NCBI RefSeq assembly: GCF_000701705.1
Contig: NZ_JNJP01000002.1
Span: 175,210-207,209 of the forward strand
Origin: Bilophila wadsworthia ATCC 49260
GTDB lineage: Bacteria > Desulfobacterota > Desulfovibrionia > Desulfovibrionales > Desulfovibrionaceae
DNA length: 32,000 nucleotides
Direction of reading: 5' to 3'
A program made the translations under genes and the position numbers. Positions 10,357 to 17,686 of this stretch are shown here, piece by piece. Under the pieces are notes generated by a model. It was not told where the DNA came from. It did no database searches and saw only the letters and a list, made by a program, of their open reading frames with translations. Numbering within the stretch: position 1 is the first letter of the stretch; every line of letters begins with the position of its first letter.

Positions 10357-10389
10357 AGAGAGAGAGAGAGAGAGAGAGAGAGAGAGAGA
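10357..10389 (+). repeat. (AG)16 dinucleotide microsatellite in the tssJ-tssK intergenic region
   Basis: A perfect 33-nt AG tract counted directly. It starts 5 nt after the tssJ TAG stop and ends 71 nt before the tssK ATG. Confidence 0.98.
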
Positions 10390-10460
10390 CGTTTTACCAT
10401 CCGTTTTGATTGACGCGGGTTCCCCGAAGGCACCGCGCAAACCATATTGGGAAGGCCGAC

Positions 10461-11867
10461 ATGCAGCCTCAACGTCCGGTATACTGGTATTCGGGACAAT
10501 TCCTCGAACCGCAGCACTTCCAGCAGGCTGATGCCTTTCATGCCTCGGAACGGGCGTCGCTGCTCCAGTCGGCGCAGCCGTGCTTCTGGGGCGTGGGCAA
10601 CCTGGATGTGGACGAAGCGGCGCTTGCCGAGGGGCGGATTCTCGTCCGCAGCGGGATAATGCGTTTTCAGGATGGCACCGAGGTTGTAATCGCCGCCGTG
10701 CCGGAAGACGGCAACGCCATCCTGCCAAGCCGGGGTTTCCGCGAAGCATGGACGGACCCACATATGCCGTTTACGGTGTTTGCCGGCCTCCCGCCGTTGA
10801 AACCCTATGGCAACGTCGCCGGGATTCCATCGTGCATGCGGGACGGAGGCAGGCTGATCGGATGCGATGCGGACACCTTGCCCGAAGCGCCGGGCCGTTA
10901 TCTTTGTCCGAACAGCGACGACAGCATAGCCGATCGTTACGCCCTGCCCCTTGCCACGGAAAGCCGGAGGGACATGCCCGTGCGCACGCTCTATCTTTAT
11001 CCCCGCCTCTTCTGGGAAAACGAAACCACCGACCGCCCGGATTGGCTGTTTCTGCCGTTGTTGCGCCTCACGGACGAAGGCTCCGGACCGCGCCCTGATC
11101 CCGCCTATGCGCCGCCTTCCCTCTATGTGGAGGCCAACCCCGTGCTGCGCGGGCTCGCGCGCGGACTCGAAGCCCGGCTTGCCGCAGCCATCCGGCGCCT
11201 TGAGCCAGCCCGGCGGCGCGGACTCGATGAGCCCGCAACCTCCAGACAGCTTCTGCTCGTGAATGCGGCGCGGACGCTCTCCGAGCTGCGCCACGCGCTG
11301 GCATGGCCCGGAACCGCCCCCCATGAGCTGTTCGGGCTGCTCCGGAACGGCTTTGCGGCGGCAGCGGCCTGCGTCGGGATTGCAACGGCGGACGCCATGC
11401 CCCTCTACCGCCATGACGATCCGGCTGAAAGTTTCCGCAGCCTCGACAGTCTGTTGCGGGAGATCCTGCGCGGCCTGCTCCCGGAAACGGCGGCGGTGGT
11501 CCGCTTCCGTGCGGACGGCGAATTCCTGCGAGCCGAACTCCCCGAAGGTCTGGGCCGGACACAGGCCCTACTCGTACTCCAAACCGAAGAAACCGTTTCC
11601 TCCTTGCTCAATGAGGGACGCCTTGTGGCCGATGCTCCGGACACCCTCCCCGCCACGCTGGCCCAGGCCATCGCCGGAGTCCCGCTGCGCGAAATCCCCG
11701 CTCCGCCGGGCCTGCCGCAACGGGATGGCATCCACTATCTGGAGCCCGACGCCCGTTCGGAGCGCTGGCAGGCGGCGCTGCGTTCCGGAGCCCTCGGAGT
11801 TGCCCTCTTCCCCCTGTGCGGCCCTGCCCTACCCGGTCACCTTCGCCTGCTTTACTTGAGGAATTAA
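10461..11867 (+). CDS. tssK: TssK baseplate protein
   Basis: The N-terminus MQPQRPVYWYSGQFLEPQHFQQADAF matches the TssK signature (W.EGMFL.PQHFQQ). The start was chosen at the ATG at 10461, which has GGGAAGG upstream. The track's 10410 start adds 17 implausible residues. Confidence 0.85.
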   Translation: MQPQRPVYWYSGQFLEPQHFQQADAFHASERASLLQSAQPCFWGVGNLDVDEAALAEGRILVRSGIMRFQDGTEVVIAAVPEDGNAILPSRGFREAWTDPHMPFTVFAGLPPLKPYGNVAGIPSCMRDGGRLIGCDADTLPEAPGRYLCPNSDDSIADRYALPLATESRRDMPVRTLYLYPRLFWENETTDRPDWLFLPLLRLTDEGSGPRPDPAYAPPSLYVEANPVLRGLARGLEARLAAAIRRLEPARRRGLDEPATSRQLLLVNAARTLSELRHALAWPGTAPHELFGLLRNGFAAAAACVGIATADAMPLYRHDDPAESFRSLDSLLREILRGLLPETAAVVRFRADGEFLRAELPEGLGRTQALLVLQTEETVSSLLNEGRLVADAPDTLPATLAQAIAGVPLREIPAPPGLPQRDGIHYLEPDARSERWQAALRSGALGVALFPLCGPALPGHLRLLYLRN

Positions 11868-11870
11868 ACC

Positions 11871-12743
11871 ATGCTGCGCGACTGCTTCGGCCCGTGTTTC
11901 CGCCTGATGCTCCGTTTGCCGGATAGCCCGCCAACCGGAAGGACGGACGTGCGCCGGGAGGCGGAACGGCTGCTTGAAGAGGCTGGGCGTCTTGCGCTGC
12001 ACGGGCGCGAAGCGGCGACAGTGGAAACGGCCCGGCGCATGGTCGAAGCCTGGATGGACGAAACCGCCCTTGGCATCGCATGGGAAGGCCGCGCCGCCTG
12101 GCTAGGCAATCCACTCCAACGCCGCTGGAGGACGGGACGGAGCGGCGGGGACTGGTTTTTCGACGAAATCCGCCGCCTGTCTCCGCACAGAGCCGAAGAT
12201 GCCGAGCTGGCCGAGGTCGCCCTGCGTTGCCTCGGATTCGGATTCCGAGGACATTTTTATAACGATCCCAATGGGCTCGGCCTCGAGCACCGAGCGCTTG
12301 CCGAGCGGTTCGGCTGTACGGCGGTTCCGCTTCCTTTCCCACCCGCTCCATATCTGCCAAGGGAAAACCGCCTGTTCCGGCATGTCGGGCCTCTGCTGAC
12401 GGGGCTTTTCGCCGTATTGCTGCTGATCTTTTGGGGCATATGGCAACATCGGCTGAACCGGGAGTATACCGGGAGCCCACAAGTTCCCGCCGTGAGTGCG
12501 GTACATCCCGCAAGCGATAGCCCGCGAACGGGCGGCGCGCGATCCGCCGTATCGCTTTCGTCCCGACCCAGCACCATTATACAAAAAGGACGGGAGGCTG
12601 TCGGCTCAAAGAAACAACCCATTCCCGACGTGTACGGGGAGTTGCGGAATCGTCTGGCAGGGCGGACGCCGGCCCCCGCGTCGCATGACCCCGGACACCC
12701 CGGTGCGAACAACCGTAACACAACGCCGGGGAGGTCTTCATGA
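11871..12743 (+). CDS. tssL: TssL (DotU/ImpK family) membrane-complex protein
   Basis: DotU-like cytoplasmic domain (WFFDEIRRL, ELAEVALRCLGFGFRGHFY) followed by one TM helix (LLTGLFAVLLLIFWGIW). The tail of about 100 aa is low-complexity, and no OmpA/peptidoglycan-binding domain is seen. The stop overlaps the tssM ATG as ATGA. Confidence 0.75.
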   Translation: MLRDCFGPCFRLMLRLPDSPPTGRTDVRREAERLLEEAGRLALHGREAATVETARRMVEAWMDETALGIAWEGRAAWLGNPLQRRWRTGRSGGDWFFDEIRRLSPHRAEDAELAEVALRCLGFGFRGHFYNDPNGLGLEHRALAERFGCTAVPLPFPPAPYLPRENRLFRHVGPLLTGLFAVLLLIFWGIWQHRLNREYTGSPQVPAVSAVHPASDSPRTGGARSAVSLSSRPSTIIQKGREAVGSKKQPIPDVYGELRNRLAGRTPAPASHDPGHPGANNRNTTPGRSS

Positions 12744-16097: not shown

Positions 16098-16209
16098 GCA
16101 TAAGGAAGCTTTCTAGAGGCCATTCATAAATCGTCCATTGGAATGGTTGATGAGGATTCGTTCGCCGAAAAATGGAGTTTTCAGCCCATTTCCGAAGGCT
16201 TCTACGCAA

Positions 16210-17511
16210 TTATTCCAGCACGGTTCCGTTCCGGCCTTGCTGCTTGACCTGGTAGAGGGCCTTGTCCGCCTTGCTGTAGAGATCCGCAAGCGAGGATGGG
16301 CCGTTTCCGAACGCGCCGCCAATGCTCAGGGTCACGGACAAAGGCTCTTCTCCCGCACGGCAATCAAGCAACCGGGCGCGCAGGGCATCCAACCTTTCAC
16401 GCACGATTTCGCGAGATCTGACGCCGCGAAGAAAAATCACAAACTCGTCCCCACCCCAACGGCAGAGCACATCGCCGGACCGGAAGGATTTCCGCATGGA
16501 ACTGCCCATGTATTGCAGGACCGAGTCCCCCGCGAGGTGCCCGAAGCGATCGTTCACGCTCTTGAAATAGTCGATGTCGAGCAACAGAAAACAATAGCTG
16601 GAGGAAGCCCCCACCAAATCCAAATGCTCGGAAATGAGCTTTTCCGCCGCAGCCCGGTTGAGCAACCCGGTAAGCTTGTCGTGGCGGCTGGTGAGCATGA
16701 GCTGGCGGTTCGCTTCCTCAATCTTGCGGATGGAGGTCATGTCCTGTGCGAAGAGCAGCACGTATTCGCCCCGCAGATCAAGAGTATCCTTGACCAGGGT
16801 GCTCCTGATGAGCAGCTCGTGCCGGCCGTCCTCATAGATGACATTGCAGAACATGGAGACGGTCCCGCCACCGTTCTCCCTGATACGCGCCACCAGGTTA
16901 TCAAGGGCAAAATACTGTATGTAGTTTTCCCGCTCCTCCGGGACGACCACATTTTCCGCAAACCAGAGAATCTGTTCCTTGAAGGTCTGCTGCGGCAGCA
17001 TCTCCCCGTTGCCCGCGCCGATGACGGTTGTGCTCATGCCTGTCCGAACATCCACAGTCATGAAATTCTCGCACAGGTTGGACACAATAAAATTGATGCA
17101 GCTGTTCTTGAGCGCAAGGATGTTGGCGTCGCGGATTTGTTCCATCACCTCATCGGTTTCATCCCGCAACGCCGCAAGAATATGCTTTTCGTCACCCGGC
17201 AGAAATTTGAGGTTCCGGCACAGACAAATCCCGTCGTCGCGCCGGATGCGGTACTGGACAACGGCCTTCTCCACCGAATCGACCAGCTTCAAAATGCGAT
17301 CACGCTCCGTATGGCGCCGGAAGAACTCGCGCTCCTCTGGCAATACGTACTTTGCAAGAACCTCCATGCCCTCTTCATACGTCCCTTCGGAGGGGACCAC
17401 ATTGAACAATTTCTTACTCAGCACGAGCGTATGGTACTGCCCATTCTCACGATTGAAAACGAAGACGGCATCATAATCGCGGAGCAACAGAGACTTGGAA
17501 AAATCTTCCAT
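16210..17511 (-). CDS. Diguanylate cyclase: two PAS-like sensory modules plus a GGDEF domain
   Basis: 433-aa ORF containing RHDKLTGLLNR, LLLDIDYFKSVND and an intact GGDEF motif (nt 16441-16455). An RSGD I-site (RxxD) lies five residues upstream of GGDEF (nt 16471-16482). The N-terminal ~260 aa have no TM helix and contain two PAS-like segments (YRIRRDDGICLCRNLKFLP, and VIYEDGRHELLIRSTLV...LLFAQDMTSIRK). Confidence 0.93.
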   Translation of the reverse strand: MEDFSKSLLLRDYDAVFVFNRENGQYHTLVLSKKLFNVVPSEGTYEEGMEVLAKYVLPEEREFFRRHTERDRILKLVDSVEKAVVQYRIRRDDGICLCRNLKFLPGDEKHILAALRDETDEVMEQIRDANILALKNSCINFIVSNLCENFMTVDVRTGMSTTVIGAGNGEMLPQQTFKEQILWFAENVVVPEERENYIQYFALDNLVARIRENGGGTVSMFCNVIYEDGRHELLIRSTLVKDTLDLRGEYVLLFAQDMTSIRKIEEANRQLMLTSRHDKLTGLLNRAAAEKLISEHLDLVGASSSYCFLLLDIDYFKSVNDRFGHLAGDSVLQYMGSSMRKSFRSGDVLCRWGGDEFVIFLRGVRSREIVRERLDALRARLLDCRAGEEPLSVTLSIGGAFGNGPSSLADLYSKADKALYQVKQQGRNGTVLE

Positions 17512-17634
17512 AAAAAAACACCTTGCCCGGCAACCTCAACCAAACATCTTTGGCGGGACACAACCGGGCGCAAATGGGGAAATATGCCTCCCTCCATCCC
17601 AAAGTTCCAACCTGACGTCAAGGGATAGCGCGCC

Positions 17635-17686
17635 GAGAGAGAGAGAGAGAGAGAGAGAGAGAGAGAGAGAGAGAGAGAGAGAGAGA
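17635..17686 (+). repeat. (GA)26 dinucleotide microsatellite upstream of the GGDEF gene
   Basis: A perfect 52-nt GA tract counted directly. It lies 124-175 nt upstream of the GGDEF ATG at 17511 and has the same strand polarity as the tract at 10357-10389. Confidence 0.98.

Follow-up and report, generated by a model that had tools for sequence, protein, structure and literature searches.

Two hypervariable GA microsatellites at the type VI secretion locus of Bilophila wadsworthia are probable attachment sites of integrative and conjugative elements

The DNA considered here is a 32,000-nucleotide stretch of Bilophila wadsworthia ATCC 49260 (contig NZ_JNJP01000002.1, positions 175,210 to 207,209), referred to below as the window. 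It carries a type VI secretion system (T6SS) locus and two long GA dinucleotide repeats, one between tssJ and tssK (tract 1) and the other between a GGDEF-domain gene and a URO-D-family gene (tract 2). Both tracts are, in our judgement, probably unoccupied attachment sites of a family of integrative and conjugative elements (ICEs), and part of a lineage-wide set of hypermutable (GA)n repeats in gut Desulfovibrionaceae. This is based on the anatomy of the element junctions, on the occupancy of both tracts in other strains, on the repeated use of single tracts by different element variants, and on the variable lengths of the unoccupied alleles. It differs from the proposal made in an earlier, sequence-only reading, which saw the tracts as possible tuners of gene expression and possible substrates for deletion; they are more likely to be docking sites of conjugative elements whose attachment core is a GA microsatellite. 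Within the library searched, no paper was found that deals with repeats in Bilophila, with this element or with microsatellite-using integrases. The central features, in window coordinates, are the following.

8555-9589, minus strand: tssA (Pfam).
9684-10352, plus strand: tssJ, in its 222-aa form (Pfam T6SS-SciN).
10357-10389, no strand: tract 1, (AG)16.5, a hypervariable microsatellite and probable integration site of the ICE family, unoccupied in this window; its left flank reads ...CCAAAGTTAGAG, then (GA)n.
10461-11867, plus strand: tssK, the first gene downstream of tract 1 (Pfam T6SS_VasE).
11871-12743, plus strand: tssL, DotU family (Pfam DotU).
12740-15895, plus strand: tssM, IcmF-related (Pfam IcmF-related_N).
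16210-17511, minus strand: GGDEF-domain gene, encoding a putative diguanylate cyclase (Pfam GGDEF, E = 3.6e-40).
17616-17621, minus strand: TTGACG, a putative -35-like hexamer, from alignment of the GGDEF leader with that of the sister-species locus L011.
17635-17686, no strand: tract 2, (GA)26, a hypervariable microsatellite and probable integration site of the ICE family, unoccupied in this window; on its right, (GA)n is followed by AGCTCAGCTTTTTT...
18132-19478, plus strand: URO-D-family methyltransferase gene, beyond tract 2 as seen from the GGDEF gene (Pfam URO-D).

Direct reading and Tandem Repeats Finder agree that tract 1 is a perfect repeat of 33 nt and tract 2 a perfect repeat of 52 nt, each with its purine-rich strand on the plus strand, so that the coordinates, purity and polarity first described for them hold. 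The accompanying statement that the window contains no other dinucleotide tract is borne out, as no further run of at least 5 units was found in the 32 kb, and the gene assignments made at the same time are correct according to Pfam. Homopolymers of 9 or more are likewise absent from the window. The base composition leads to an expectation of ~2e-5 (GA)8 runs per window. Tract 1 is intercistronic, starting 5 nt past the tssJ stop codon and ending 71 nt short of the tssK ATG; the near edge of tract 2 is 124 nt upstream of the GGDEF ATG, within the divergent gap that separates the GGDEF gene from the URO-D-family gene. Neither is located inside an open reading frame (ORF) or in a mapped promoter spacer. 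The two form same-polarity direct repeats 7.2 kb apart, and both are homopurine-homopyrimidine mirror repeats of pure GA, long enough to be candidates for H-DNA.

The TssL, GGDEF and TssJ proteins of the window have exact copies that NCBI and UniRef name Bilophila wadsworthia, and thousands of blocks in the public assembly collection contain exact proteins of the locus (1993 blocks for TssL). Comparison was made among 26 non-redundant loci, namely the window and L001-L010, L018-L027, L091, L094, L095, L096 and L098. Across these independent assemblies the flanks are ~99% identical and the tracts differ. Unoccupied tract 1 ranges from 27 to 57 bp, with 13 distinct lengths among 25 alleles, and unoccupied tract 2 from 14 to 76 bp; only L020 is missing tract 2. 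Unoccupied alleles, with one unbroken copy of the tract, are found at both sites in the window and in 24-25 other assemblies. Allele lengths spread over a wide, continuous range and do not fall into a few classes. The differences are far beyond sequencing stutter and are seen among NCBI genome assemblies and metagenome contigs alike. Given such large differences between near-constant flanks, both tracts are genuine hypermutable microsatellites, and the sequence-only reading was right to regard them as repeats of the slipped-strand type. Some alleles depart from the simple repeat: tract 1 is compound at its downstream edge in L019 and L027, where (AG)n is followed by (A)12-13, and in L018, where it is followed by A6; L022 and L095 each have one odd unit in the tract, and in L025 the left flank is 6 nt shorter through a loss. 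The A-run beside tract 1 in L019, L027 and L018 amounts to a second hypermutable run that has grown there.

The same comparison bears on the suggestion that recombination between the two tracts removes tssKLM together with the GGDEF gene and switches the T6SS off irreversibly. Although direct repeats of 33 and 52 bp at a distance of 7.2 kb could serve as substrates, a single-tract join of tssJ to the URO-D-family gene was found in 0 of the 26 unique loci (no scan dedicated to that junction was made), and a look-up of URO-D neighbours for the right junction of tract 2 or for the deletion allele returned intact loci only. The lone variant without the GGDEF gene, L020 (one metagenome-assembled genome, MAG), is also without tract 2 and the URO-D operon; the break lies at window position 16056 (~16424 in L020) and not at a tract. 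Its homology to the window ends 160 nt past tssM and gives way to an IS200-type Y1 transposase gene and unrelated genes. Deletion between the tracts is therefore a very improbable explanation of their presence.

What does interrupt the tracts in other strains is a mobile element. On the 289-kb contig L021, the match to the window breaks off precisely at tract 2, of which 25 bp are present, and gives way to the left end of the element, TCCCTCACAT..., with an HTH_36 gene and a DotH/IcmK gene; the sequence directly after the 25-bp tract is also recorded as TCCCTCACATATCAGAC.... In L018, tract 1 is split into (AG)6, a scaffold gap of 10 N, and new sequence ending ...AACATGTGAGGGAC, which adjoins (AG)6.5 beside tssK. 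The new sequences of L021 and L018 have GTCCCTCACAT in common, in inverted orientation. Two further contigs, L029 and L030, carry the left end of the element next to host sequence that matches the tssJ side of tract 1 with 99% identity across 400 bp. The left junctions at tract 1 thus read flank-(GA) of 17 or 32 bp-GTCCC... (17 bp in L030), and the right junction reads ...GGGAC-(AG)6.5-flank, with the element ending in ATGTGAGGGAC (L018). The element is found in tract 2 in one strain (L021) and in tract 1 in three contigs (L029, L030 and L018), so that in other strains both window sites directly adjoin an element whose genes include an integrase, an excisionase-like gene and conjugation genes. 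Occupancy of each site is low, ~1/26.

The termini of the element are a perfect 11-bp inverted repeat, GTCCCTCACAT, replaced in one subfamily by GGTCACAT. The integrated layout is host-(GA)x-GTCCCTCACAT...element...ATGTGAGGGAC-(AG)y-host; since GA is found on both sides, the element sits within the GA tract, in a single orientation relative to the purine strand. Genes at the left end encode the HTH_36 protein, DotH/IcmK, a TrbI/DotG-like protein and DotI/IcmL, together with a large ATPase-like ORF of >940 aa that has no family match. At the right end, ~145 nt inside, a tyrosine recombinase of ~400 aa (Pfam PF00589) reads inward, adjoined by an HTH_17 excisionase-like ORF and a LuxR-type HTH ORF. 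A relative in Mailhella also has ParA and a NikA-like/relaxase pair, and these genes together with the Dot/Icm-type genes indicate a transfer module that is IncI/Dot-Icm-like. The left arm contains two TTATCC repeats, at +121 and +133 from the terminus, in 14 of the 14 left ends displayed (29 unique ones were collected), and the right arm two GGATAA repeats, at +89 and +100 (+86 and +97 in the other subfamily), in 4 of 4 full right ends. Paired in this way, ~90-135 nt inside the ends, the repeats have the layout expected of arm-type integrase sites. For the TG-like termini a DDE transposon was also considered, a reading that was dropped in view of the tyrosine integrase, the excisionase-like gene and the arm-type repeats located at the ends.

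For the integrase, the sole match is to the generic catalytic domain, and its scores are under all curated NCBIfam cut-offs. Its family comprises 267 clusters at E < 1e-40, and a tblastn search against plasmids returned only relatives of <=28% identity. Integrase P0251, at 61% identity, served as a negative control: there is no dinucleotide tract at its junction, which indicates that the association with GA belongs to the clade with GTCCCTCACAT-type ends.

Use of GA tracts by this clade is not confined to the window sites. A metagenome scan for (GA)5.5-GTCCCTCACAT recovered 41 human-gut contigs in which the left end of the element abuts (GA)n of 12-54 bp, with different host flanks in 21 of the 29 contigs that have readable host sequence. 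A genome scan for ATGTGAGGGAC-(AG)5 gave five right-end junctions in MAGs of Bilophila, Desulfovibrio and Mailhella, and a scan of viral contigs for the element junction found nothing. In all, (GA)n adjoins the element ends at ~30 sites in the DNA of Bilophila, Mailhella and Desulfovibrio hosts, with constant motif and polarity. The scan patterns required 10-11 nt of tract, so that junctions with shorter tracts would be missed. Chimeric assembly at repeats was considered as a source of these joins. It was rejected for the set, because the same structure recurs in >60 contigs produced by different assemblers and several of the junction tracts do not reach the length of a typical k-mer, those of L021 (25 bp) and L030 (17 bp) being short enough for reads and k-mers to span; single contigs each remain open to misjoining.

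Several of the sites lie within host genes. Host ORFs that run into the tract encode proteins ending ...ERERER followed by SLTY..., SPSHI... or VPHIS..., the three reading frames of the element end. Exact look-ups of these ERERER-tailed host proteins gave, for five sites, clusters that contain unoccupied alleles with variable (GA)n.

TPR protein: unoccupied alleles have three C-terminal tails (DAARKQ..., TPPGSS and RRPEAARP...), which correspond to a single right flank read in its three frames.
LysR regulator (named Mailhella or Desulfovibrionaceae): unoccupied alleles have three alternative tails.
Formyltransferase-like protein: unoccupied alleles have two alternative tails.
Sigma-54 activator, 1009 aa: the tract is in the interdomain linker.
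GT2 glycosyltransferase: intact forms of 317 and 321 aa, in which GERERERES is inserted in frame, and also frameshifted split forms.

In the GT2 gene, the unoccupied DNA reads ...ATACACGCCG-(GA)17-ATCTGAGCC..., that is, ...CACGCCG-(GA)17-ATCTGAG, and the occupied allele ...ATACACGCCG-(GA)11.5-GTCCCTCACAT.... The repeat lies in a variable linker past the conserved N-terminal core, and homologues align on either side of it. A similarity search for intact orthologues of the GT2 fragment had given only relatives of <=60% identity; the exact cluster look-ups later supplied them. None of the fetched loci, all of which were searched, contained an unoccupied copy of the other insertion sites. Over the set, the tracts are located at the 3' ends of genes, in an interdomain linker, in a variable loop and in intergenic DNA.

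Individual sites have been entered more than once, with two variants of the element end at the GT2 site, at least four at the TPR site and several at the LysR and formyltransferase-like sites. Together with the variable unoccupied alleles, these variants imply that the tracts are present even where the element is not, that their lengths vary, that those in genes shift the reading frame, and that they are re-used as points of entry. Four features of an attB site are found here: the element is joined to the site; the site is present at both junctions, between unchanged flanks; it is a single copy when unoccupied; and it is used repeatedly. They also bear on the view that the tracts are neutral, by-products of a lineage-specific slippage bias that the element merely tolerates as insertion points. 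That view would accommodate the continuous variation in length, RNA folds around the tracts that are no better than shuffles (see below), and the decay of an unmaintained tract, as to (AC)3(TC)3 in the strain L076. Against it, different element variants entered the same tracts independently and always in the same orientation, no tract-less junction was seen among GTCCCTCACAT-type ends (with scan patterns that demanded 10-11 nt of tract), and tract 2 has stayed pure at one position across a species split. We regard neutrality as improbable.

That species split is seen in a sister species (L011-L015) with the same gene order and a TssK that is 84% identical. Its tssJ-tssK gap has no tract; the homologous spot reads ...GGATAGGGAAGACGCGTTGCC..., with just AGGGAAGA at the position of tract 1. 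Two of its contigs end within a (GA)13 that starts 124 nt upstream of the GGDEF ATG, with the same offset as in the window, and the GGDEF leader and gene are ~80% and 86% identical, respectively. The shared offset means that tract 2 predates the split, and tract 1 is specific to B. wadsworthia. More distant relatives (L016 and L017, with TssK 63% and 55% identical) have neither the tracts nor the GGDEF gene.

How the tracts arose is a related question. In one answer the element itself seeds them: its attP carries a long (GA)n and enters short GA-like motifs, and out-of-register excision leaves behind an expanded tract that is both a footprint and a site for re-entry. The sister species, with no more than AGGGAAGA where tract 1 lies, would fit this, as would the single motif, in one polarity relative to the element, at all ~30 sites, and the location of tracts where insertions are tolerated. 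Furthermore, the window tracts aside, every GA/TC run of at least 10 bp in the fetched loci is at an element junction. A remnant island (L074-L083, ~10001-20690), fixed, ~10.7 kb in length and beside a GAF-GGDEF gene, has lost its integrase-side end and retains a 32-34-bp tract at the surviving one, ...TGAGGGAC-(TC)16-17, which has decayed as noted above in L076 alone. On the other hand, every unoccupied allele recovered already has a tract, with no tract-free state within a species, and no attP was seen among the fetched junction contigs (no dedicated search for it was made). In addition, one element, its integrase and cargo identical throughout, was found in three different host surroundings, where the junction tracts measure 15/19, 10 and 44 bp, which suggests that the target, rather than the element, sets the length of the tract. 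Seeding by the element is therefore possible but doubtful. At one site, the Mailhella element has complete junction tracts of 25-33 bp across samples. The persistence of 32-34-bp variation in the one-ended remnant island supports replication slippage. Among the genes of that island are a family integrase (P0165), a 1201-aa PATR autotransporter-like gene, a MalT-like regulator and insertion sequence (IS) fragments.

Returning to the tracts as attachment sites, the probable course of events can be outlined. The integrase would exchange strands inside the GA tract, the excised form would carry GA between inverted core sites, and the length of the tract would change through replication slippage and perhaps also through out-of-register recombination. 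In tract 1, the element would part tssJ from tssKLM, and its integrase would point away from tssK. Such an insertion is predicted to cut off the genes of the baseplate and membrane complex from the tssJ promoter, leaving the T6SS switched off until the element is excised.

A number of points weigh against this account. The excised circular attP, ...ATGTGAGGGAC-(AG)n-GTCCCTCACAT..., was absent from the fetched junction contigs (no search of the collection aimed at it was made), and because no such junction has been seen, recombination within the tract is inferred rather than observed. The inverted core sites are separated by a variable spacer of 10-76 bp, at odds with the overlap of tyrosine recombinases, for which the usual geometry is 6-8 bp. 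With an occupancy of ~1/26, the tracts could persist for reasons unrelated to the element. The evidence comes mostly from metagenome assemblies, in which repeats can misjoin. Finally, the left and right junctions at tract 1 were obtained from separate contigs, and the scaffold gap in L018 means that it may represent a solo end rather than a full element.

One reason unrelated to the element, though compatible with the tracts doubling as ICE sites, would be regulation. The sequence-only reading had suggested that repeat length could tune expression. On such a rheostat view, slippage in tract 1 would set how far read-through or translation continues from tssJ into tssKLM, slippage in tract 2 would tune the GGDEF promoter, and the tracts would be retained by selection for a T6SS and c-di-GMP signalling that can be switched. 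Both tracts are indeed hypervariable, and contingency behaviour is seen at related sites, in the in-frame (317 and 321 aa) and frameshifted alleles of GT2 and in the changing tails of the LysR, TPR and formyltransferase-like proteins. Tract 2 has held its place across the species split, with flanks at ~80-86% identity, 13 nt from a TTGACG hexamer that lies on its GGDEF side and is conserved in the sister species. Tract 1 is purine-rich on the non-template strand for tssK, and a purine-rich non-template strand can impede transcription in a length-dependent manner. However, consensus scans called neither a promoter nor a terminator at either tract, the TTGACG position included, and neither tract is in an ORF or between a mapped -35 and -10. 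The RNA folds of the tssJ-tssK spacer and of the GGDEF leader are no better than those of shuffles (z-scores 0.2-1.0), the sister species runs the same tssJKLM operon without tract 1, and lengths vary continuously. Most intragenic tracts, moreover, are at extreme C-termini or in linkers, where they would make a poor on/off switch. A regulatory role of the window tracts is possible, and maintenance of the tracts for that role somewhat unlikely.

Further observations concern the genes around the tracts. TssK is called as 468 aa in all related loci, and in related loci the URO-D-family protein is called as 448 aa. TssJ occurs in two forms, the 222-aa form of this window (TCA at 10278-10280) and one of 198 aa (TGA), which is the more common; a point change, and not the repeat, distinguishes them, and the ORF of the long form reaches to within 5 nt of tract 1. 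The tssJ-tssK spacer also has an insertion polymorphism at ~10424, a 34-bp sequence with hairpin potential, GGGCATAGGACGGAGCAGAACCGCTCCGGGCATC, present in one strain clade (L008 and L018-L027). Promoter-like sites with the same hexamers and spacing, TGGACA-N17-TAAATT, lie upstream of tssJ (9583-9611, plus strand) and of the URO-D-family gene (17861-17889, plus strand).

Elsewhere in the T6SS locus, tssB and tssC are fused in a single ORF of 719 aa (6350-8509, minus strand), in which both sheath-subunit NCBIfam equivalog models score above cut-off and the Pfam VipA and VipB domains are present. The fusion is kept at 717-725 aa across all related loci, distant relatives included. Among L008 and L018-L027, an ORF between vgrG and tssG (~1843-2382, minus strand) has a faint match to Peptidase_C58 (YopT-like) in several strains and is exchanged for other small ORFs in other strains; the slot may be a variable position for T6SS effectors. 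A tandem repeat at the left edge of the window (92-219) has a 54-nt period, 2.4 copies and 76% matches.

An MttB-family methyltransferase gene (24273-25793, plus strand) has an in-frame TAG (...YIAGG*TDSICND...) and is called either as products of 326 aa and 172 aa or, when read through, as 506 aa. The TAG is consistent with a pyrrolysine codon. Around this gene are a corrinoid-protein gene, RACo, cobW and a second URO-D-family gene, and the sole Rfam match in the window is a cobalamin riboswitch aptamer (RF00174, 105 bits; 27797-27980, plus strand). A variant of the GGDEF protein, XUR83825.1, is annotated as plasmid-borne in B. wadsworthia, and contigs that carry the locus reach 0.69-0.83 Mb, which together raise the possibility that the T6SS locus sits on a large secondary replicon. 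In one MAG assembly the locus is on a 3.1-Mb contig, and a search of the locus against the plasmid collection gave no match.

The element resembles well-known ICEs that have a tyrosine integrase and a defined attB, such as SXT/R391 in prfC, ICEBs1 in a tRNA-Leu gene and ICEclc in tRNA-Gly genes. It shares with them the placing of integrase and excisionase-like gene together at one end, a conjugation module with relaxase, arm-type repeats inward of each end, and a short chromosomal core that recurs at both junctions. It is set apart by that core, which in the known elements is fixed and unique and here is a dinucleotide microsatellite of ~9-76 bp, and by the many sites per genome, ~30 across species, some of which are intragenic. 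The choice of many equivalent targets, set by a repeated sequence rather than a unique gene, is shared with the filamentous prophages of Neisseria that insert in dRS3 repeats and with IS1397 or IS621, which insert in REP sequences. Those elements use fixed palindromic targets and Piv/MooV-type or DDE/IS110-type enzymes, whereas here a tyrosine integrase is paired with a microsatellite of variable length. Specificity for a simple di- or trinucleotide repeat is itself known from the non-LTR (long terminal repeat) retrotransposons Mino, Kibi and Dong, which insert in (AC)n, (TC)n and (TAA)n, respectively; they are eukaryotic, insert by target-primed reverse transcription, and are unrelated in both enzyme and host domain.

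Parallels are also found among systems that switch genes. Classic contingency loci include the tetranucleotide repeats in the lipooligosaccharide (LOS) glycosyltransferase genes of Haemophilus influenzae, the poly-G tracts of Campylobacter, and the CT/AG repeats in outer-membrane and fucosyltransferase genes of Helicobacter pylori. The GA tracts are, like these, perfect, hypermutable and variable among strains, and one related tract gives in-frame and out-of-frame alleles of a glycosyltransferase ORF. They differ in that the window tracts are intergenic and have no mapped relationship to a promoter, that one motif is used throughout and by a mobile element, and that intragenic tracts are mostly at C-termini or linkers rather than near the 5' end. 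In "active lysogeny," exemplified by the Listeria comK prophage and the skin and SPbeta elements of Bacillus subtilis, an element interrupts a gene and its excision restores it. Insertion in tract 1 would similarly split the tssJ-tssKLM operon and excision would restore it, as judged from sequence alone; here, however, the insertion is between genes rather than in an ORF, and is found in few contigs.

A more far-reaching possibility, tentative and in our view rather unlikely, is that the element both spreads GA tracts and resizes them by out-of-register integration and excision, with phase-variable genes (a glycosyltransferase and several regulators) arising as a by-product, and that by docking between tssJ and tssK it reversibly silences the T6SS of its host and so spares potential recipients in conjugation.

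B. wadsworthia is a common pathobiont of the human gut. If the tracts are indeed attachment sites, an integrase with a length-variable microsatellite as its core would represent an unusual form of site-specific recombination, and would raise the question of how cleavage sites are set when the spacer between core sites may be anything from ~10 to 76 bp. It would also link two processes that are usually studied apart, repeat slippage and horizontal transfer, in that tracts that shift reading frames would double as points of entry for conjugative elements. For the T6SS of this organism, the prediction is that an element in tract 1 should disconnect tssKLM and so act as a switch that turns the system off.

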